A stretch of 63,343 nucleotides of DNA, the filler included, from an uncultured bacterium (GTDB lineage Bacteria; CAYJRR01), in assembly GCA_964372275.1 (NCBI GenBank). It is 3 parts of 3 records of this genome, joined end to end, with 100 filler letters (N's around TTAATTAATTAA, not from the genome) between each part and the next. Parts side by side here need not be neighbours in the genome. Positions count along the whole stretch, not along the records: positions 21,663 to 42,514 come from CAYJRR010000080.1; 2 more parts are not named here. One strand, given 5' to 3'. Positions 39-42,738 of the stretch are shown piece by piece. The stretch's first letter is position 1, and the number at the start of each line of letters is the position of its first letter. Under the pieces are notes generated by a model. That model saw nothing but the letters and a program-made list of their open reading frames with translations, was not told where the DNA came from and did no database searches. The position numbers and the translations under genes were made by a program.

Positions 39-2384
39 ATGGGGCGCTCGCGAGTCATGGCGTGGTTGATCGCAATCACGGTGGTGGTCAGCGGGTGCCG
101 CCCAAAACCCGACGAGGGGGACGACGACATCGAGACGCCGACACTCGAGTCGATCGAGGTCACGCCCTCCATGGTCAGTGTCCCCAAGGTGGTCGCGACG
201 CAGCTTCACGCGACGGGTCACTACTCCGACAGCTCGACACAAGACCTCACCGCGGCGGTCGTCTGGAGCTCGTCCGACGCCTCGATCGTGACCGTCGGCG
301 CGGACGGCTTGACCCGGGCGGTCGCCCCGGGAACGGCGACGATCACGGCCGTATTCGAAGCCACCGAGGAGTTCGAGGCCGTCTCCGGAACGGCGACGGT
401 CGAAGTGACGGCGCCGCTGCCGAGCGCCGGCTTTGCCTATGTTCCGAACTACACCACCAACGCGATCTCCACCTACGCCGTGGCCGCCACGAGCGGTCAG
501 CTCGTCTTTCGGGGGATGGAGGACTCCGGATCGAATCCTTCGGCGATCGCGGTCGATCCGTGGGGCCGCTTCGTCTATGCCTCCAACTTCGGTTCGAACG
601 TCCTCTCCGCCTTCGTGGTCGGGACGAGCGGGAGGCTGGGACAGCAGACGCTGGTCGAGGCCGGCACGACTCCGGTGGCGGTCGCCATCGATCCGACGGG
701 CCGTTACCTCTACGCCGCCAACAAGGGTTCCAACGACGTCAGCGCCTTCGCCATAAACCCGGTCACCGGTGCCTTGACCGGCAATGTCAAGGCGACGGCG
801 GGGACGAGGCCGCGGGCGATCGCCGTCGAGCCGTCCGGACGCTTCGTCTACGCCGTGAACGAGGGATCGAACGACGTCGCCCAGTTCGAGATCGATTCGA
901 CCGACGGGACGCTCACCGCGTTGGGGACGGTGGCCACCGGAACCACCGGGTCGTCGATCGCCTTCGATCCGATGGGGCGCTTTGCCTACGTCACCAACCA
1001 GGGCGCGAACAACGTCTCGGTCTACGCCGTCGATGCGGCGAGCGGCGCGCTCAGCCCCGGAACGGCGGTCGCCGCCGGGACCTCGCCTCGCTCGATCGTG
1101 GTCGATTCGTCGGGGCGTTTCGCCTACGCCGCCAACTTCGGCTCCAACAACGTGTCGGTCTTCACCATCGACCCGACGACCGGGGCGCTGACGGCCGGCA
1201 CGGCGGTGGCGGCCGGAACCGGGACCGCCTTTCTGGCAATCGATCCCAACGCCGACTTCCTCTACGCGACGAACCTGACCTCCAACACCGTCTCCCAGTT
1301 CTCGATCAACCCGTCGACGGGCGCGCTGACGCTGGTGCGGACGCTCTACGGACTGAACGGGCCCTACGCCCCGGCGATCTCCCGCCGGGCGGCGGCCAAG
1401 AGCTACCTGCCGAAAACGCTCTACGTGGCGAACAACGGGTCGGCGAACGTCTCGGTCTATTCGATCAACGCCACGACCGGGGCGCTCACCGCCGCCGGCA
1501 CGGCGAGCGCGGGGACCAACCCGTTCCGGGTGGCGATCGATCCGACGGAGCGATTCGCCTACGTCACCAACAACGGCTCGAACAACGTCTCGGCCTTCGT
1601 CATCGGGACGGCCGGACAGCTCACCTCGATCGGCGCGGCCGTCGCGGCGGGGACCACGCCCCGCCACATGACCTTCCACCCCACCGGCAGGTTCGCCTAC
1701 GTGGCCAACCAGGGCACGAACGACGTGTCGGTCTATTCGATCAACCAGACCACCGGCGCCCTTACCGCGATCGCCACCACCGCGGCGGGCACCGGCGCCC
1801 GCGGAGCGGCGGTCGACCCGACCGGACGCTTTCTCTACGTGGCGAACAACGGCGCGAACAACGTCTCGGTCTTCACCATCAACCAGACGGCCGGGACGCT
1901 CACCGCGGGGACGGCGGTGGCCGCCGGCACGGGGCCCAGTTCGATCGCGGTCGATCCGTCGGGCCGATTCGTCTATGTCTCCAACAGCAACAGCAACAAC
2001 GTCTCGGTCTTCACCATCAACCAGACGACGGGAGCGCTCACGGCAGGGACGGCGGTGGCCGCTGGCACGGCGCCCAACGACGTCCGGGCCGAGCCGACCG
2101 GCCGCTTCCTCTACACGGTCAACGGCACGACCAGCAACGCCTCGGTCTACACCATCAACCAGACCACCGGGGCACTGACCGCGGGTACCGCGGTGGCGAC
2201 CGGCACGACTCCGATCGGCCTGGCCGCCGACCCCACGGGGAAGTTCCTCTACTCCGCGAACCAGAACACCAACAATGTCTCGGTCTTTTCGATAAACCAG
2301 ACGACCGGCGCGCTGACCGCGGGTACGGCGATCGCGGGCGGCACCACACCGTTCGGTCCGGCTGTGCTCGGAGGCCTACAGTAG
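39..2384 (+). CDS. Lipoprotein with Ig-like (Big_2-type) domain and two 7-bladed lactonase-family beta-propellers
   Basis: GGAGG RBS; lipobox VSGC; SIEVTP..VWSSSDASIVTV..GTATITA Ig motif; 14 repeats of the type 'AIDPxGRFxYVxNxGSNNVSVF'. Confidence 0.85.
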   Translation: MGRSRVMAWLIAITVVVSGCRPKPDEGDDDIETPTLESIEVTPSMVSVPKVVATQLHATGHYSDSSTQDLTAAVVWSSSDASIVTVGADGLTRAVAPGTATITAVFEATEEFEAVSGTATVEVTAPLPSAGFAYVPNYTTNAISTYAVAATSGQLVFRGMEDSGSNPSAIAVDPWGRFVYASNFGSNVLSAFVVGTSGRLGQQTLVEAGTTPVAVAIDPTGRYLYAANKGSNDVSAFAINPVTGALTGNVKATAGTRPRAIAVEPSGRFVYAVNEGSNDVAQFEIDSTDGTLTALGTVATGTTGSSIAFDPMGRFAYVTNQGANNVSVYAVDAASGALSPGTAVAAGTSPRSIVVDSSGRFAYAANFGSNNVSVFTIDPTTGALTAGTAVAAGTGTAFLAIDPNADFLYATNLTSNTVSQFSINPSTGALTLVRTLYGLNGPYAPAISRRAAAKSYLPKTLYVANNGSANVSVYSINATTGALTAAGTASAGTNPFRVAIDPTERFAYVTNNGSNNVSAFVIGTAGQLTSIGAAVAAGTTPRHMTFHPTGRFAYVANQGTNDVSVYSINQTTGALTAIATTAAGTGARGAAVDPTGRFLYVANNGANNVSVFTINQTAGTLTAGTAVAAGTGPSSIAVDPSGRFVYVSNSNSNNVSVFTINQTTGALTAGTAVAAGTAPNDVRAEPTGRFLYTVNGTTSNASVYTINQTTGALTAGTAVATGTTPIGLAADPTGKFLYSANQNTNNVSVFSINQTTGALTAGTAIAGGTTPFGPAVLGGLQ

Positions 2385-11944: not shown

Positions 11945-12107
11945 GGGACGAAGCGCCGGCGCGCCCGCCGCCCCTGTAATGCGCTGCATCAAATCGTACA
12001 CCTCGGCTCGAAACGACACGATCGGCGCGCCGCGCCGGACGTGATCGGCGTCACATCGATCGCCGTTCTCGTCGTCTTTACGCCGCCATGACGCAGCGCG
12101 TCCGTCC

Positions 12108-12123
12108 TGGCATCGACGGTGCT
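12108..12123 (+). promoter_or_regulatory. Putative sigma54 -24/-12 promoter of the transglutaminase-like lipoprotein gene
   Basis: TGGCATCGACGGTGCT, GG-N10-GC spacing, 40 nt upstream of the ATG. Confidence 0.6.
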
Positions 12124-12162
12124 CTAGCGCGCCCCCCACCGGAACGTTTCAGGGAGGCCGAC

Positions 12163-14522
12163 ATGAACCCCGCAGCTCGTTTCGCAGCGATCCTTCTCCT
12201 CGGCGGCGCCGCCGCCGGGCTCACCGCCTGCCGCGAACCCGTTGCCGTCGAGCTCGGCGGCCTCGCCCGGCCGTCGTGGTCGGTCGGCGACTCCTGGACG
12301 ATCGCCTCCAAGACCCTTCGCCAGCAGCACGGCGATTCGGTCTCCGGCGACTGGAGCCACGAGCGCCTGTTCACCTTCATCGTCAACGCCGAAGGGACGA
12401 TCGACGGCGTGCCGGTCCACCGCGTCGTCGTCGGCGACGTCGAGGCAGGCGACAACTACCTCACCCTCTACTTCCGCCGGGACGACGGCGCGCTGGTCCG
12501 CGTCGAGGAGTCGGCGCGCAACCGCCGCGGCGGCGCGAAGACGATCGCCGCGAACCTTTTCGGTCACGACGCATTCCCCGTCGTCGGTGACGACCTGCTG
12601 ATCGGTCTCGGGTGGCCCGCCTTCCACGGCCGGAGCGGCTCGTTCGCCTACGACGGCGTGCTGGAAGGGATCGGCGGCTTCGGCGGCGAGGTGGAGCAGC
12701 AGGTGCGCGACCTCGGGGACGGAATCGAGGTGACGCTGCGCCGCGGCTCGACCGAGCTCACGCAGACCTGGTCCAACGGAGAGCCCTGGTTCTCCACGCA
12801 GGTCGTCTCGGGCCGCGCGGCGGCGCGGCTGGTCGAGGTCCGCCGCAAGTCGGCCGACAACGCGGCGACCTCCGTCGAGCCCGTCTTCGCGATCGATACC
12901 TCCGAGGAGGGGGCCGATCGCCCGCTGGGCTGGCCCACCTCCGGCGAGGCCCGCTTCGTGCCGTGGGCGAACCCGGGGATCCTCCCCAACGCGTCGGGCG
13001 AGGCGAGCGGCGTCTGGTCGGGTCACTGGTGGCCGATGCTGGAGAGCGCGTCGACGACGCTCTACGCCGACAACGGCCCGCTCTCGAAGTACGACGCCTA
13101 CGTCCAGGCGGCCGGCTCCTCCAATCCGGGCTCGGTGGCGTGGGAGAAGTCGAACCACAAGACGACCGACTCGAAGAACAGCTGGTGGGGGCACTGCAAC
13201 GGTCTCGCCGCGGCCTCGATCCTCGAGGACGAGCCGAAGGTTCAAGGCCTCGGGAACGGGATCACCTTCACCGTCGGCGACAAGAAGGGGCTCCTCACGG
13301 AGATGAACAACGGCGGAGGCCTCGACCTGTGGGTCGGCTCGCGGAACGACTCCGAGGACGACACCACCTCGGCGGCCTTCAAGGACGTCGTCCCCTACGA
13401 CTTCCACCGCACGCTGGTCGAATGGATCGGCGTCCGCCGCGAGCCGGTGGTGATGGACCTGAACGCCGGACCGCAGGTCTGGAACTACCCCGTCTACCGC
13501 TACGAGATGACGAGCGCCCCGGTCGAGGGGGTGGCCCGCAAGATCAAGGTCACCACCAAGATCTGGAAGGTGAACTTCGCCTCCGCGAACTACGTCGGCG
13601 TGAACAGTGCGCAGACGACCTACACCTATACGCTCACCGTCGACGCGTCCGGGAACCCGGTGCAGGGTCCGTCGGAATGGACCGGCGGCAGCGTCTCCGA
13701 CCATCCCGACTTCATCTGGCATCCGAACGGCCGCGGCACGGGCAGTCCGATCCAGTGGTCGCGGGTCCAGGAGATCGTCCAGCTGGGCCTGGCCTCCTCC
13801 GACGACCATCCGAACTCGGCCTCGGGCGTCGGCGCGAACGACACGCTCGNNNNNNNNNNACCCCGATCAACGGCGTCTTCGAGACGGCGGGTGACGTCGA
13901 CTACTTCCGCTTCACGGCGGAACTGTCGGCCGAATACACGATCCTCACCTCGGGACTGTCCGGTGGCGCCGACACCTTCGTCCATCTCCTCGGGACGAAC
14001 GGCACCACCGAGCTCAAGTCGGACGACGACGGCGGAGTCGAGCAGTACGCGTCCAAGGTCGTCTTCCGCCCGACGGCCGCGGGGACCTACTTCGTCAAGG
14101 TCCGCCACTATTCGGCGAGCGGCACCGGCAGCTACAAGATCGCGGTGACCAAGCAGGCGCTGTCCGCGGGCGACGACCATCCGAACACCGCGGCCGCGAC
14201 CCGTCCGGAGGACACTCTCACGGCGGCCGGCGTGGCGGGCTCGATCGAGCAGGCGGGGGACGTCGACTACTTCCGATTCGATGCCGTGGCGGGGAAGACC
14301 TACACCGTCGAGACCTCCAATCTCGCCGGCGGAATGGACACCTACACCTACCTCTACGATGCCGCCGGCGCGGAGAAGAAGAAGGACGACGACTCCGGAG
14401 CCGAGCGGTGGTCCTCGAAGATGGTCTGGACCGCCCCCTCGGCCGGCACCTTCTACGTGAAGGTGAAGCACTACGACGCGGCCAAGACCGGCACCTACCG
14501 CATCAAGGTGACGTCGAACTGA
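12163..14522 (+). CDS. Lipoprotein with transglutaminase-elicitor-like catalytic domain and two PPC-like C-terminal domains (frame broken by the N gap at 13850-13859)
   Basis: GGGAGG RBS; lipobox LTAC; WSGHWWP, WWGHCNGLAAAS, QVWNYPVY, HPDFIWHP; two 'DDHPN..GDVDYFRF..DDD.G..YFVKV.HY' repeats continue in another frame after the gap. Confidence 0.7.
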
Positions 14523-20436: not shown

Positions 20437-21562
20437 TCATCCCTCGGACTCGGTCTCGGTCGCGGCCCCGCCCGCGGCCGCGCTTCCGGTCTCGGACGCG
20501 GCCCCGACCGCGGACGCCGCCTCGCCGCCGTCGCCGTCCGCCCCGTCTTCGCCCGGCCGTTTCTTCTCCAGGTGCCGGAACACCGTCCGCGGGTCGACGT
20601 CGAGATCGCGGGCGGTCTTGGTGCGGTTGCCGTTGTTGAGCTCGAGAACCTCGTCGATGTAGCGGACGCGGAACTCCTCGATCGCCTGGGTCAGCGGGAG
20701 GATCTTCTTCTGGTAGCCGCGCGCGAGCTCCAGGTCCTCGACGGTGAGCCTCGGCCGTTCGGCCATCACCACCGCCTTCTTCACCTTGTTCTCGAGCTGC
20801 CGGATGTTCCCCGGCCAGGCCGACTTGCGGACGGCGAGGATCGCGTCGGGGGTGAACCCTTTCACCGGCGAGTTGAACTCCTTCACGTACTTCTTGAGGA
20901 AGAAGTTGGCGAGCATCAGCACGTCGTCCCCTCGATCGCGAAGCGGTGGAACGCGGATCGCGACCTCATTGAGACGGTAGAAGAGATCCTCCCGGAACCG
21001 GCCCGCGGCGACCTCGTCCTGCAGCACCTTGTTCGTGGCGCACACGACGCGGATGTCGACGGATCGGGGCCGGTTCTCCCCGACGCGCTCGACGGTGCGC
21101 TCCTGCAGCGCCCGGAGCAGCTTCACCTGCAGGATCGGGTTCATCTCCCCGATCTCGTCCAGGAAGAGGGTCCCCTTGTTCGCGGCCTCGAACTTCCCCG
21201 CCTTGTCGCCGACGGCGCCGGTGAAGGCCCCGCGCACGTGCCCGAACAGCTCGCTCTCGAGCAGGTTCTCCGGGATGGCGCCGCAGTTGATCGAAATGAA
21301 GGGGCCCTTGGAACGCGGTCCGCGGCGGTGGATCTCGCGGGCGATCAGCTCCTTGCCGGTCCCGGTCTCGCCCTCGATCAGCACCGTGATGTCGGTGGTC
21401 GCGATCTTCTCGATGGTGCGGAAGATGGCGCGCATCCCCGGCGCGCCGCCGATCAGGTCGCCGAACGCCGATTCGGCACTCTCCGCCTTGAGTTGCTGGA
21501 CGTCGCGCCGGAGGTCTCGGATGTGGAAGGCGTTCTGGATCGCCATCGCCGCCTGTCCGGCG
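20437..21562 (-). CDS. sigma54-dependent Fis-family activator (5' truncated at contig end, probably preceded by a GAF domain)
   Basis: GETGTGKE, ESELFGH, GAFTGA, LFLDEIG, FREDLFYRL, WPGNIRQL, C-terminal Fis HTH; frame open to the gap (AGQAAMAIQNA). Confidence 0.93.
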
Positions 21563-36600: not shown

Positions 36601-38008
36601 CGCCGTCGCCTCGCGCCGCGCCGATCCGGAGGTCCGGACGCGCGAGGTGGAGCTCGTCGCCGCCAACGACCCGGCGGAGGGCCTGCAGCCGGCGCCGGAC
36701 CGGTACCAGTTCCAGCTCTTCGCCGACGAATCGCTCGAGCAGCTGCTGCACCAAGAGGTGGTCGCCGCCGGCGCCGGCGGCCGAACCACGCTCCGCCTCG
36801 GAGGCGTCGACCTGGAGGACGACCGCCGCTACGCGTGGCGCGTGCGGACCACCGACGGAACGCGGCACGGTCCCTGGCGGCAGGCCTGCGAACTGTTCTT
36901 CAATCCCGAGAACGACCCGCCGGCCGCTCCCCGGCAGAGCTTCCCGCTGGACGGCGCACGCGTCCCCGACCGGGTCCCCACCTTCGCCGCCGGTCCTGCA
37001 TTCGACGTCGACGACGAACTCCTTCTCTACCGCTACGAACTGCGGCCCGACGAGCCGGCCTCGGCCCCGATCGCCGCCTCCGCCTGGCTCGCCGGAGACG
37101 AGGTCGGCTCGCGCTGGACGTCCGACGCCGTTCTCGCCGAGGGTCGCCGCTATCGCTGGCGCGTCGCAGCGGCCGACCCGGACGGCGCGGTGCGCTGGAG
37201 CGACGAGCGGGTCTTCGCCGTCGACGGAAAGAACCTCCCGCCGGAGGCACCGGTCCTGACCGTGCCGTCCGATCTGACGGTGTCCGGCGAGACGGTCACG
37301 CTGTCGATCCACGCGCTGCCCGATCCCGACGGGGATCCGCTGTGGGCGGTCTTCGAGCTCGACCCCGCCGCACCGGGGAACGGAGCGTCGTCCGCCGGGA
37401 CGCCGCTCGCCGTTTCGGAGGCCGTCCCCGTCGACGCAGACGGCGGCGCGGCGTGGTCCCCGACGGGGCTGGAGGAGAACCGCCGGTACCGATGGCGCGC
37501 CCGACTCACCGACGGGGGAGCATCGAGTGGATGGAGCGTCGGCCGCCTGTTCGTCGACCGTCGCAACGATCCGCCCGGTCGTGCCGTCGCCCTCGATCCG
37601 ACGGACGATCGGACGGTCACGACCGCGACGCCCACCCTCTCGGTCCGAAACGCGGTCGATCCGGAAGCGGACCCGCTCTCGTACGCCTTCGAAGTGCGCG
37701 TCGGCGACGTCGACGGGCCTGTCGTTGCGTCGATCGACGGGGTCGAGGAGGGAACGTCGCGCACCCGCTTCACGCCGTCGGCGGAGCCGCTCGTCTCCGG
37801 CGTCTATGTCTGGCGCGTCCGTGCCCGTGACGCGCGCGGCGGCGTGGGTGAATGGTCGGCGCCGGAGCAGTTCGTCGTCGACACGTCGGCCGAGCGGGCC
37901 GGTGGATTCGGCTGCCGCGTGGCGGCGGCACCGGCACGAGCGACCGGTGGGCTGTGGTGGATGGCGGTCGCCGCCGTCCTGGCGTTCCGCCGACGCCAGC
38001 GGCGATAG
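21663..38008 (+). CDS. Giant (>5400 aa, 5' truncated) Ig/cadherin-like tandem-repeat surface adhesin with C-terminal beta-sandwich domains and MYXO-CTERM-like anchor
   Basis: Frame open from the contig edge; dozens of 'VNDxP..ED..YTP..NxNGxDSFTF' repeats; WDWGDG PKD-like motif; Y.WRV FN3-like units; ends GGFGCRVAAAPARATGGLWWMAVAAVLAFRRRQRR. Confidence 0.9.
24401..27866 (+). repeat. Ten tandem ~345-348 bp closely similar intragenic repeats
   Basis: Units start VNDKP(S/T/A/V)F(V/A)KG at approx. 24401, 24746, 25091, 25439, 25787, 26135, 26480, 26828, 27173, 27521. Confidence 0.9.
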
Positions 38009-38264
38009 GGCCGTGGTCACCGCACGCGGCGCGACAGGCTGTCGCGAGACCGGCTGAATCTTCGACGGATCATGCGTGCGCCGCAGCGCCTGCGCCGATC
38101 GCCCTTCGGCGCATCGATCTGCGATCGCTGTCGACGATCTGGTCGCGCGGCCTGTGCATCCAACGGCGGATGAAATGGGGATGCTCTGTGGATGGCCGTA
38201 CGAGTTCCCGTCCTCACGAGACTTTTTGCCGTTGACGACGGGCGCGCTACGACGCCGATTCCTC

Positions 38265-38280
38265 TGGCACGTCGGCTGCT
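38265..38280 (+). promoter_or_regulatory. sigma54 -24/-12 promoter driving the candidate large ncRNA
   Basis: TGGCACGTCGGCTGCT: GG 38266-67, GC 38278-79 (GG-N10-GC); predicted +1 near 38291, next to the 5' strand of the terminal helix. Confidence 0.8.
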
Positions 38281-38292
38281 ATTACTCCAGTC

Positions 38293-39219
38293 GACAACGC
38301 GGTTGGTTGTCGGGTCCGCGGCAGGGACGTGAGACTCGTGGAGCCGTAAGGTAGGAACGCGAAAGGTTTCGTAGAGATCGGAAGGCAGGCGGCGACGCCG
38401 GCCGGAGGATCGAGGGGCAACCCAGAAGCCCGGTAGTCGTTCCGCGTCCACGAGCCTTGAACGTCGGCCAAGAACCTCAAGGGGGCCGGTGGCCGGTCGC
38501 GATCCGGCAAACCGATCTTCCGGTGATCGAGACTCTGCATCGCCGTTCGGAACCCGCTTCGCGAGTGGTCGGGCATCGATCGACGAACGAGAGGAGGATC
38601 CGCCAACACGGATCCATCGCCGGAGGGGGGAACGCCCCGAAGAGGAGACCCGGGCGTCCGTCGCCCTGCCTTGGCCGCAAGGCCTCGGCGAGCGCGGAAG
38701 GTCCGGGGGAACCCCAAGAGCGCAGCGGGGATGAAACAAGCCCTGCAGGGTCGTGGGTGATGCAAGCCGTCGAGAGGGTGTGAAACCCTGCGGGCGGGAC
38801 GCGACCGGAGGTCGGAATCTCCGGACGATGCGGGTACCCACTTCTGTCGAGCGCTGTAGGGGACGGAACCCCAGGAGAGGTGCTTCCGCCTTCGGGCGGG
38901 AGCGGTCGTACGGTGGTTGACGCTTCGAGGAGAGCGGCAACCCGAAGAGAGGAGAGTCGTCCGGGTAAAACCGGGCGGCGACGTCGGGACGAGAAGACCC
39001 GAAGGGCCTGATGCGCCGGAAACGGCGCGGGTCGAACGGGGAGGACCGAAGAGCTACTTCCAGCTCCGAGGGCCTATCGACTTCGACGCGGAACCTCTGG
39101 ACGGGAGCCCAATCTCGCGGAAGCGCCGGGTTGCGCGCTGCAGCCGCGCGATGCCGCCCATCGTCCGGCTCACACCTCTGAAGGGGCCCGGCGGGTTCGA
39201 CCTCTTCCACCGCGTTGTT
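38293..39219 (+). ncRNA. Candidate ~925-nt highly structured non-coding RNA of unrecognised family
   Basis: ACAACGCGGT (38294-38303) is the exact reverse complement of 39209-39218; further nested long-range helices; GNRA and cUUCGg tetraloops; promoter upstream, T-run and terminator downstream; no credible ORF. Confidence 0.8.
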
Positions 39220-39236
39220 TTTTTTTGAGCCGTTCG

Positions 39237-39276
39237 AGAGCCCGGGCCGGCGCTGCCGCCCCGGGCTCTTTTCTTT
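39237..39276 (+). terminator. Intrinsic terminator after the candidate ncRNA
   Basis: AGAGCCCGGG-C-CGGC-GCT-GCCG-C-CCCGGGCTCT followed by TTTCTTT; preceded by T9 at 39218-39226. Confidence 0.8.
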
Positions 39277-39291
39277 CCGCTCTCGCGACGG

Positions 39292-39441
39292 TCCCCTTCC
39301 TTCCCTCCCCTTCTCCCTCGCTCCTCCTTCTCCTTCTCCTCGAATCTTCCCCCTGCTCCTTCTCCTCTACGCTGCTCCTCGAGGAGGAGCGGAAAGGAGG
39401 AGGAGGAGGAGGAGGAGCGAGGAGGGTGACGGGGAAGGGGT
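39292..39441. repeat. Pyrimidine-tract / purine-tract imperfect inverted repeat containing (GGA)7
   Basis: CTCGCTCCTCCT 39317-39328 pairs with AGGAGGAGCGAG 39410-39421; inner hairpin GCTCCTC-GAG-GAGGAGC 39374-39390; (GGA)7 at 39396-39416. Confidence 0.7.
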
Positions 39442-39467
39442 CGTGGCCGCGCGGCCGGCCCGAATCG

Positions 39468-41236
39468 TCAGCCGGCGAAGGCGGCGGCGAGGAGGGGTTC
39501 CTCGGTCGTTTCCAGACCGGCGGCGTGGCTGGCGCCCGCAACGAGCGACGCCGACGGTCGGCATAGCAGCCGGCGGCCGGCGGCCAGCGATGCGTCGCGC
39601 AGGGTGGAATGCGCGGCGTTCTCGAGCAGCAGCGCCAGGGTTAGCGTCCGGCCGGTGCAGTCGATCCAGGGACGGATCGCGCGCGCGGCGTCGTCGTCGC
39701 CCAATGTCGCAATCCCGGCGAGCGATCGCCGGTCCTCGTCCAGCCGCCGGCGCACCTCGTCGGCCAACGCCGCGGCCTCGGGGCCCGACGGGGTCGCGTC
39801 GAGCGCCCGTGCGATCCGATCGAGTAGCGCCGGTCCCGCCTCCTCCTTCCGGACCGCCCGGAGGACGTCGAGGGCCAGCACGTTGGAGGTGCCCTCCCAG
39901 ATCGGGAGAACCTGGCAATCGCGCAGAAGCCTCGGCAGCACGCTCTCTTCGACGTAGGCGTTGCCGCCGATCGCCTCCATCGCCTCGCTCACCACGTTCA
40001 CGGACAGCCGCCCGNNNNNNNNNNGTAGAGGAGCTTCACCATCGGGATCTGCGCCCGAATGCGAGCGGTCGCCGACCGCCCCACCGCTTCGCCGCCGGGC
40101 GCGGCGATGGCGTCGGCAAGGTCGAGCCCCCGCACCGCGTCGAAGGTGGCGCAGAAGGCGCCGATCGTCTCGGCCACCAGATCGGCCATGCACGAGCGCC
40201 ACAGCGGGAGATGGCGCAGCGTGCGACCGAAGGCGCGCCGCTCGGCTCCGTAGGCCAGCGCTTCCAGCGTCGCGCGCCGCATCCCCGAGACGCTGGCGCA
40301 CGCGTTGTAGAGGCGCGAGAGGTTGAGCATCTCCGCCATCCGCCGAAAGCCTTCGCCGACCCCGCCGACGAGGTGTCCGACGGTGCCGTCAAACGTCACC
40401 TCCCCCGTCGGCATCGACCGAACGCCGAGCTTGTCCTTCAAGCGATGCACCACGATCGTACGGTCGTTTCCTTCGGGGTCGTGGCGCAGCACCAGGAACA
40501 GACCGAGGCCCTTCGTCCCGGGAGGTCCGCCGGGCATCCGCGCCAGCGCGAGGATCGCCTCCGCGTCGACGTTCGAGCAAAACCACTTGTCGCCTCGCAG
40601 CCGCCAGCGGCCGTCCCCGGCGGTCGCGCTCGTTGAGGGGGCTCCCGCCGGAGCCTCCTCCGCCGTGACTCGGTTCGCTCCGACATCCGAACCACCCTGC
40701 TTCTCGGTCAGGAACATCGCCCCTTGCCACAGGCGGGAGAGGTCGGAGGTGGTCAGCCGCGAAAGCGCCTCCCGCGCCGCCGCCCCTTCTCCGAACCTCT
40801 CCAGCACGCGCGCCGCGCCGTCGGTCATGCAGATCGGGCAGGCCAGGCCCAGCTCCGCCTGACCAAAGAGATAGGCGCCGCCGAAACCGACCAGGTGCCG
40901 TCGCGGCCGATGGGCGGCGAGGAACGCCGGATCGTACTTGATCGACACGATCCCCGCGCCGTAGGAGAGCTCCTCCATCCGCTGGTAGTCGGGATGGTAG
41001 ACGACCCGGTCGATCCGGGAACCCGCCGGATCGTGCGTGACGAGCCTCGGAGACTCCCGGTCGGCGCGCGCGGCGAGTGGCACGGCGGCCGCGGCGTTTC
41101 TCCCGAGCCGCTCGAGGTGCGGTCGGACCGCGTCGTACGACGAGCCGATCCACGCCTGGAAGGCGCGCCATCCGAATGGATCGGCATGGAGGAGGTTTTC
41201 GAATCGAGGCTGCGGAATCGTCCGGTCGTCACCCAT
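39468..41236 (-). CDS. AidB-like acyl-CoA dehydrogenase (frame broken by the N gap at 40015-40024)
   Basis: CPICMTDGA, MFLTEKQGGSDV, GDKWFCSN, RLKDKLGVRSMPTGE, EAIGGNAYVEE, LPIWEGTSNVLALD. Confidence 0.88.
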
Positions 41237-42662: not shown

Positions 42663-42738
42663 TGGCTCCCGCGAGAGGACTCGAACCTCTGGCCCGGTGA
42701 TTAACAGTCACCTGCTCTACCAACTGAGCTACGCGGGA
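42663..42738 (-). tRNA. tRNA-Asn (GTT)
   Basis: TCCCGCGTAGCTCAGTTGGTAGAGCAGGTGACTGTTAATCACCGGGCCAGAGGTTCGAGTCCTCTCGCGGGAGCCA; full cloverleaf with encoded CCA. Confidence 0.97.

Follow-up and report, generated by a model that had tools for sequence, protein, structure and literature searches.

A large structured non-coding RNA of a probable new family behind a sigma54-type promoter in an uncultured bacterium, with relatives in Myxococcota

Large, intricate RNAs are rare in bacteria, and those with a known function are ribozymes or central ribonucleoprotein (RNP) machines. OLE, GOLLD, ROOL and raiA are long-standing functional puzzles. The sigma54-driven RNAs GlmY, Qrr1-5, CrcZ and Pxr are about 100–400 nt long and simply structured, and their protein or mRNA targets are known. 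Bacterial Y RNAs carry a 5'-3' closing stem and a tRNA-like module, and their setting is the sigma54/RtcR-controlled rsr-yrlBA-rtcBA operon. The processing stems of ribosomal RNA (rRNA) precursors are RNase III substrates. GOLLD, ROOL and OLE are reported to oligomerise (PMC12286853); an RNA-repair operon under RpoN/RtcR is the subject of PMC9879122. In this study, a stretch of DNA of 63,343 nucleotides from an uncultured bacterium (lineage CAYJRR01, assembly GCA_964372275.1), called the window here, was analysed. The plus strand from 38291 to about 39227 (or 39277) was read as the gene of a highly structured non-coding RNA (ncRNA) of about 0.93 kb, which would be transcribed with sigma54 on a signal and act in trans as a stable RNA. 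A probability of about 0.8 was assigned to this reading, mechanism included. It is highly probable that the locus holds a genuine gene for a structured ncRNA whose family is new and absent from Rfam 15.

Like GOLLD, ROOL and OLE, and also raiA, the RNA had a stand-alone gene of hundreds of nucleotides, multi-stem junctions, GNRA/UUCG loops and invariant patches. With a length of 0.9–1.0 kb and about 260 conserved pairs, it stood at the top of the size range of ornate large ncRNAs. Unlike GOLLD, ROOL and OLE, it occurred in Myxococcota and in an unplaced lineage of high GC rather than in Bacillota or phages, and it gave no match to their Rfam models; it was also set apart by its sigma54 promoter, present in two clades, and by the long stem that closes its 5' and 3' ends. 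With GlmY, Qrr1-5, CrcZ and Pxr it shared a gene of its own, a -24/-12 promoter, candidate upstream activator sites and diverged paralogues, but it differed from them in its size (0.9–1.0 kb) and its five covarying domains. The likeness to Y RNAs lay in a structured ncRNA behind a sigma54 promoter, an end stem and a T-loop-like hairpin seen in the metagenome copies. Unlike Y RNAs, the RNA was about eight times longer and had no Rfam match, and the T-loop-like hairpin was not conserved among the Myxococcota copies. Neither rsr nor rtcB was seen among the neighbour genes examined. The long near-perfect flanking duplex, about 35 bp in one Myxococcota order, was similar to the processing stems of rRNA precursors. 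Unlike those, the RNA is not rRNA (no Rfam match), its 3' strand may double as a terminator hairpin, and cleavage here is hypothetical.

The folding of 38291-39225 was compared with that of shuffled sequences. The plus strand reached -464.7 kcal/mol with z -3.53, and 0 of 20 shuffles were as good, while the folding of the opposite strand was weaker (z -1.69). In an alignment of nine sequences, 274 pairs were predicted by RNAalifold, with 97.0% of the cells paired. Compensatory changes occurred in 77 of these pairs, compared with 28.1±3.7 in shuffles and 6–19 when the partners were slid by 1–3 columns. A full-length alignment of 36 sequences was made with MAFFT, in which 199 of 261 consensus pairs were changed on both sides (147±4.7 in shuffles; 97–124 in the slid controls). 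The number of compensatory cells was 1422, versus 473±18 in shuffles. In both tests the observed number of pairs was reached by 0 of 500 shuffles, a figure that cannot be read as a probability, since relatedness among the sequences inflates it. The near-duplicates L118, L085 and L087 were omitted from alignment A4, and L085 from alignment A3. The paired cells had a strand bias, with 346 G-U against 18 A-C on the plus strand. Compensatory changes above the controls, on one strand, identified the element as a structured ncRNA. An earlier reading of the DNA (the sequence-only reading) had placed the RNA on the plus strand and had named folding against shuffles and covariation among homologues as checks; all three results were in its favour.

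The homologue-supported fold consisted of five successive domains (Table 1). The window copy lacked, in domain 2, one hairpin that was formed by seven of the eight other copies. Several elements of the sequence-only reading were recovered in the comparative structure. The helix closing its side domain, 38335-38342/38447-38454, was paired in 100% of the cells of the nine sequences, and its six tetraloop hairpins all fell in comparative helices (3, 7, 8, 21, 32 and 42/43). Its six nested long-range helices (38483-38551 with 39096-39171) were rejected: only 35–82% of their cells were paired, many of the pairs occurred in the window alone, and the five successive domains were found instead. The proposal of a large, possibly undescribed ncRNA under enhancer-dependent control was supported, and the internal long-range helix model was the only part of it that was wrong.

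The promoter that the sequence-only reading had proposed was present, with GG at -24 and GC at -12 in the spacing of the consensus TGGCAC-N5-TTGCW, and was kept in homologues. The pattern TGGCAY-N6-TGCT had two matches in the 63 kb, compared with 0.04 expected. The second exact match was located at 12108-12123, at the start of the open reading frame (ORF) 12088-14148. No sigma70-like site was found in 37900-39600. The sigma54 element and the 5' leader were common to the window and its closest relative (L081), with the leader identical letter for letter. TGGCAT-N5-CTGCT was located just upstream of a diverged RNA copy in DNA runs X1-X3 (loose ends). Among 30 loci of one Myxococcota order, TGGCAC-N5-NTGCA/T was found in 28, at 463–496 nt upstream of domain 4, when at least 9 of 11 consensus positions were required. 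The candidate enhancer, or upstream activator sequence (UAS), was conserved between the window and L081 and its surroundings were not. A related word, TGTGGAC/GTCCACA, occurred upstream of the promoter in 15 of the 28 order loci versus 0 of 28 background flanks. A protein may bind the candidate UAS at 38150-38199. The window copy of the RNA is probably sigma54-dependent. In L081, upstream of the enhancer-like block (881-1250, minus strand), there were three to four tandem units of about 14 nt (CCCCGCACCTCGCG-like), which were absent from the window.

The two ends of the RNA were examined for pairing. The outer closing helix, 38294-38303/39209-39218, was a perfect 10-bp duplex, as the sequence-only reading had proposed; a complementary run of that length arose once among 5000 shuffles and four times among 1430 44-nt windows elsewhere. 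The inner closing helix, P1 (38309-38319/39191-39201), which had been proposed with it, was present with 11 bp and 3 G-U, though alone it was not rare (379 of 5000 shuffles). Duplexes of P1 were present, sequence by sequence, in the window, L082, L083, L085 and L086, and every clade with both ends available had a terminal helix of its own. The outermost ~45 nt at either end formed a near-perfect duplex of up to ~35 bp in the Myxococcota order; its energy was -48 to -77 kcal/mol, and for 20 of 26 scored loci no more than 1 of 100 shuffles did as well. The consensus fold of the 36 sequences included the closing stem (helices 2-5) with compensatory pairs, and mismatches in the stem were U-G on the plus strand (L111). 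A closing stem of different sequence, with a separate terminator, was found in L138. The 5'-3' closing stem is a family feature.

The T9 run and the GC hairpin that the sequence-only reading had taken for a terminator were both present, and a simple terminator scan listed none in the region, since the loop rule of the scan excludes the hairpin at 39236-39270. The tail of this hairpin was of the UUCUUU type. The same end layout was observed in the Myxococcota copies, with a stem strand followed by a UUUUCGG-type run, and the 3' stem strand of the order copies can fold alone as a terminator hairpin.

The distribution of the RNA was investigated by whole-genome searches that drew on 2000 genomes. 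BLAST with the window RNA gave 3 weak matches among 401 Myxococcota genomes. A profile of the nine sequences confirmed three Myxococcota loci, with E-values of 1e-28 to 1e-12 in domains 4-5. A covariance model of domain 4 (R1; 187 positions, 46 pairs, 11 sequences), the E-values of which are rough, matched the window as a single copy with 190.7 bits. Within the order of G1301 it found the RNA in 39 of 147 genomes, 9 of which had two copies (E 1e-16 to 1e-40), and in a set drawn evenly across Myxococcota it found the RNA in 28 of 151 genomes, with up to six copies (G1158). R1 had no match in 88 genomes of another phylum, which served as a specificity control, nor in 10 Myxococcota metagenome-assembled genomes with taxon labels. 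By BLAST, the window RNA was found in 0 of 5 single genomes and in none of the 401, 251 and 88 genomes searched from the phyla of G409, G812 and G003, respectively; for the phylum of G005, 13 of 401 gave only short marginal matches, which were taken as chance. These BLAST negatives are weak, because BLAST saw the RNA in 3 of 401 Myxococcota genomes and the covariance model in 28 of 151. The family is present in environmental contigs and in roughly one fifth of the sampled Myxococcota genomes.

The genes beside the RNA were compared among the Myxococcota loci. Within ±1 kb of the RNA, a gene for a Cys-rich lipoprotein-like product with a signal peptide and a lipobox was found in 18 of 30 order loci, and it matched no Pfam or NCBIfam family. 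A gene for an HD/HD_assoc_2 phosphohydrolase was found within the same distance in 15 of 30 order loci. The HD gene was single-copy and at most 3 kb from the RNA in 9 of 12 genomes, where the region was syntenic. Both genes were considered as functional partners, and no link was drawn from either.

The following mechanism is proposed. On a signal, an enhancer-binding protein at the TGTGGA-type repeats, about 100–140 bp upstream, would activate transcription by sigma54. The transcript would then fold, and its 5' leader and 3' end would pair as a stem that shields both ends. A double-strand-specific RNase may trim this closing stem. Through its near-invariant domain 4, the stable RNA would then work in trans, either as a scaffold or as the core of a particle made of RNA and protein or of RNA alone. 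The chances are about even that the function is that of a scaffold or RNP core rather than of a ribozyme or a protein sponge. A bolder version, in which the RNA is a giant bacterial RNA machine of a new class, either a ribozyme or a self-assembling RNA/RNP particle, produced by myxobacteria and their relatives when needed, under a sigma54 enhancer-binding protein dedicated to it, and with diverged paralogues giving different specificities, is tentative and rather improbable.

Several results weigh against the proposed reading. The sigma54 promoter was missing in 2 of the 30 order loci (L109 and L110) and was found in 0 of 10 loci of other Myxococcota lineages; in L138, an AT-rich upstream region stood in its place. 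Sigma54 control is therefore a trait of two clades and not of the whole family. The window end helices, taken column by column in the nine-sequence alignment, were only 41–44% paired, and the energy of the whole-end duplex of the window was no better than that of shuffles (reached by 59 of 100). In the 36-sequence alignment, to which the caution on the 0/500 figure also applies, the window row was canonical in 133 of 212 consensus pairs with letters, which indicates that parts of the MAFFT alignment are unreliable for the window copy and that the nine-sequence structure is the better guide. The +1 and the 3' end are predicted positions, and processing is conjectural. No protein partner was tied to the RNA: the HD gene occurred in all 12 examined genomes that carry the RNA and equally in all 12 that lack it, so a conserved chromosomal address was inferred and not a partner. 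The window neighbourhood also differed from the order loci, and the HD gene was not in the window.

Sigma54-driven decoy or sponge RNAs are known, namely CrcZ, GlmY and Qrr. By analogy, the RNA could be made with sigma54 to titrate a regulator, as a protein-sequestering RNA like 6S, CsrB/RsmZ or CrcZ. The conserved promoter, the several diverged paralogues per genome and the recurring purine-rich GGA stretches agree with such a role. The GGA/GAGG stretches were, however, mostly paired with CCUCU segments (helices 31 and 37) and not exposed in loops, and about 260 conserved pairs are far beyond the needs of known sponges. An ordinary 6S RNA was moreover present in 5 of 5 genomes carrying this RNA. 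A sponge is therefore unlikely, although it survives better than the remaining alternatives.

The metagenome homologues, for which the translated antisense ORF was used as the probe, bear on the possibility of a large ribozyme. All eight metagenome loci aligned over 38309-39187 with 68–70% nucleotide identity, and the borders of homology were identical in all eight. Contigs L083 and L085 both started at the same aligned base (38309), which is 18 nt downstream of the predicted +1 and could be a defined 5' end left by processing. This start would suit a ribozyme that processes itself at the closing stem; alternatively, the ribozyme could act on another substrate, and domain 4 would be its active site. 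The size, the multi-domain fold and the blocks of invariant unpaired and junction nucleotides are typical of large ribozymes. However, the common contig start is equally explained by RNase trimming or by assembly. The models of group I introns, group II introns and RNase P gave no match to 38290-39225 even at E up to 10, and no catalytic motif was recognised. A ribozyme was considered somewhat less likely than a sponge.

Of the short protein-database matches to the antisense frame, 7 of 8 were on contigs of 904–963 nt, as would be expected if these contigs consist of little more than the RNA. The plasmid collection contained no match to the RNA, and two invariant-motif patterns had 0 matches in viral contigs. 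Directly 3' of the RNA in L082, a 3.5-kb contig, a stretch of about 0.9 kb (850-1780, minus strand) contained many GNRA-capped hairpins, and its folding was far better than that of shuffles (z -5.79). Neither an Rfam match nor an ORF with a Pfam domain was found in it; a second structured RNA and a chimeric join are both possible explanations. In L084, a 1.46-kb contig, a signal recognition particle (SRP) RNA adjoined the RNA copy (169-348, minus strand; 103 bits, best against the Metazoa_SRP model), which suggests a chimeric assembly of abundant RNAs.

The complementary ends, up to ~35 bp in the order group, could also be the terminal inverted repeats of a non-autonomous mobile DNA element. 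The 2–6 copies in some genomes fit this explanation, as do near-identical metagenome copies whose flanks are unrelated (L085 and L086 share 99.9% identity over 894 nt). However, one contig with unrelated flanks also carried the SRP RNA, which points to chimeric assembly. The six paralogues of G1158 (L148-L153), on six contigs, matched only inside or just beside the RNA and were 71–83% identical where aligned; a likeness of this degree, confined to the RNA, indicates old paralogues and not recent transpositions, each of them apparently kept separately. The internal helices covaried throughout, the mismatches of the stem were those of a plus-strand RNA, and the promoter and U tract lay outside the repeats at fixed positions. 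The locus was also syntenic beside the HD gene in the 9 of 12 genomes mentioned above. A mobile element is thus very improbable.

The RNA might belong to a known family (RNase P, 6S, tmRNA, OLE, GOLLD, ROOL or a group I/II intron) and be too divergent for the models, a view for which only a general resemblance in size and ornateness speaks. Rfam 15, with its OLE, GOLLD, ROOL, raiA and HEARO models, had no match at gathering score in 38290-39225, and relaxing the cut-off to E 10 brought up no relevant family; the novelty proposed by the sequence-only reading was not refuted by this search. In the eight metagenome and six Myxococcota loci there was likewise none at gathering score, save the SRP RNA 3' of the RNA in L084. 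ARAGORN listed 0 tRNA or tmRNA genes in 38000-39500, while RNase P RNA (RF00010) and 6S RNA (RF00013) were found elsewhere in 5 of 5 RNA-carrying genomes. Full-text literature searches gave no description of this RNA family. In the main text of large bacterial ncRNA surveys, Myxococcus, Sorangium, Haliangium and sigma54 are not mentioned, and the supplements could hold an unnamed motif. Membership of a known family is accordingly even less probable than a mobile element. A protein gene, in the 397-aa antisense ORF (38017-39210, minus strand) or another frame, has the long open frame and the ORFs predicted by gene callers on homologous contigs in its favour, but it is refuted for practical purposes by 13–18 indels per homologue that are not multiples of three relative to the window, by a longest open frame that shifts between reading frames among homologues, and by the lack of a Pfam family. 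Codon-pattern conservation of this ORF, which the sequence-only reading had named as evidence against an RNA, was thus not found. The amino-acid identity in the antisense frame was 33–37% over most of the frame, versus 68–70% for the DNA. The length of the antisense ORF results from the purine-rich plus strand, which leaves few stop codons on the minus strand.

The RNA gene lay in a 1.46-kb gap that separates two convergent genes (Table 1), and the plus strand of the gap was purine-rich with G+C below that of the flanks. The AidB-like gene was found in two overlapping frames, with the N-terminal and middle domains at 39998-41236 and the end of the C-terminal domain at 39468-40301, which suggests a frameshift or sequencing error. 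When AidB-like neighbours were used as a synteny route, the RNA was found in 0 of 80 loci examined. A receiver-less sigma54 enhancer-binding protein (bEBP) was encoded about 17 kb from the RNA in window coordinates, and a functional link between the two is only a possibility. Just past the terminator of the RNA, at 39293-39440, a near-perfect hairpin of about 150 nt was formed by a CU-rich arm and a GA-rich arm (z -5.68). It attracted spurious matches of microRNA models. Contigs of the DNA runs broke or diverged near it, their loose ends being CT-rich and alike, so the hairpin could be part of a repeat or a spacer prone to triplex formation. Across the window, Rfam matched a single feature, an ordinary tRNA gene at 42666-42738 (minus strand, 70.3 bits), 3.4 kb downstream in window coordinates. 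The best labelled relatives of the window SdhA were 63–68% identical and spread over several phyla.

Table 1. Positions of the RNA gene, its predicted signals and domains, and the neighbouring genes in the window
Feature	Position	Strand	Basis or remark
Sigma54 enhancer-binding protein (bEBP), receiver-less	20437-21546	-	Divergent to the cadherin/Big_9 gene in window coordinates
Cadherin/Big_9 protein gene, 5425 aa	21731-38008	+	Ends 257 nt before the RNA promoter
Candidate enhancer (UAS), four TGTGGAT-like repeats	38150-38199	+	About -141 to -92 from the predicted start; kept in L081
Sigma54-type promoter, TGGCAC-N5-CTGCT (-24 GG, -12 GC)	38265-38280	+	Pattern match and homologues
Predicted +1 and 5' leader	38291-38308	+	+1 predicted from promoter geometry; holds closing-helix strand 38294-38303
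P1, 5' strand	38309-38319	+	Metagenome homology starts here
Domain 1, multi-stem; GUAA, GCGA and GCAA loops	38320-38469	+	Helices 1-8; 92-100% paired; 9 compensatory pairs
Domain 2, most variable; helices 9-18	38475-38645	+	Comparative structure
Domain 3, GCAA-capped arm	38649-38707	+	Helices 19-21; 5 compensatory pairs
Domain 4, conserved core	38712-38862	+	Longest invariant blocks; invariant hairpin 38725-38746
Domain 5, large, branched; UUCG and GAAA hairpins	38869-39186	+	Helices 30-45
T-loop-like hairpin in domain 5	38955-38980	+	Seen in metagenome copies only
P1, 3' strand	39191-39201	+	Pairing with 38309-38319
Outer-helix 3' strand (39209-39218) into nine T	39209-39226 (T run 39218-39226)	+	First possible 3' end
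GC-rich hairpin and U-rich tail, putative back-up intrinsic terminator	39236-39277 (hairpin 39236-39270)	+	Folding
AidB-like acyl-CoA dehydrogenase	39468-41236	-	Ends at 39468, downstream border of the gap

The family described here is longer than OLE, GOLLD, ROOL and raiA and has about 200 covariation-supported pairs, and it escaped Rfam. If the RNA were indeed a giant machine, few of the non-ribosomal structured RNAs known from bacteria would rival it in size. The RNA is a natural target for cryo-electron microscopy. The sigma54 promoter and the candidate enhancer sites provide a regulatory handle, by which the inducing signal and the function of the RNA could be tested genetically in culturable myxobacteria.

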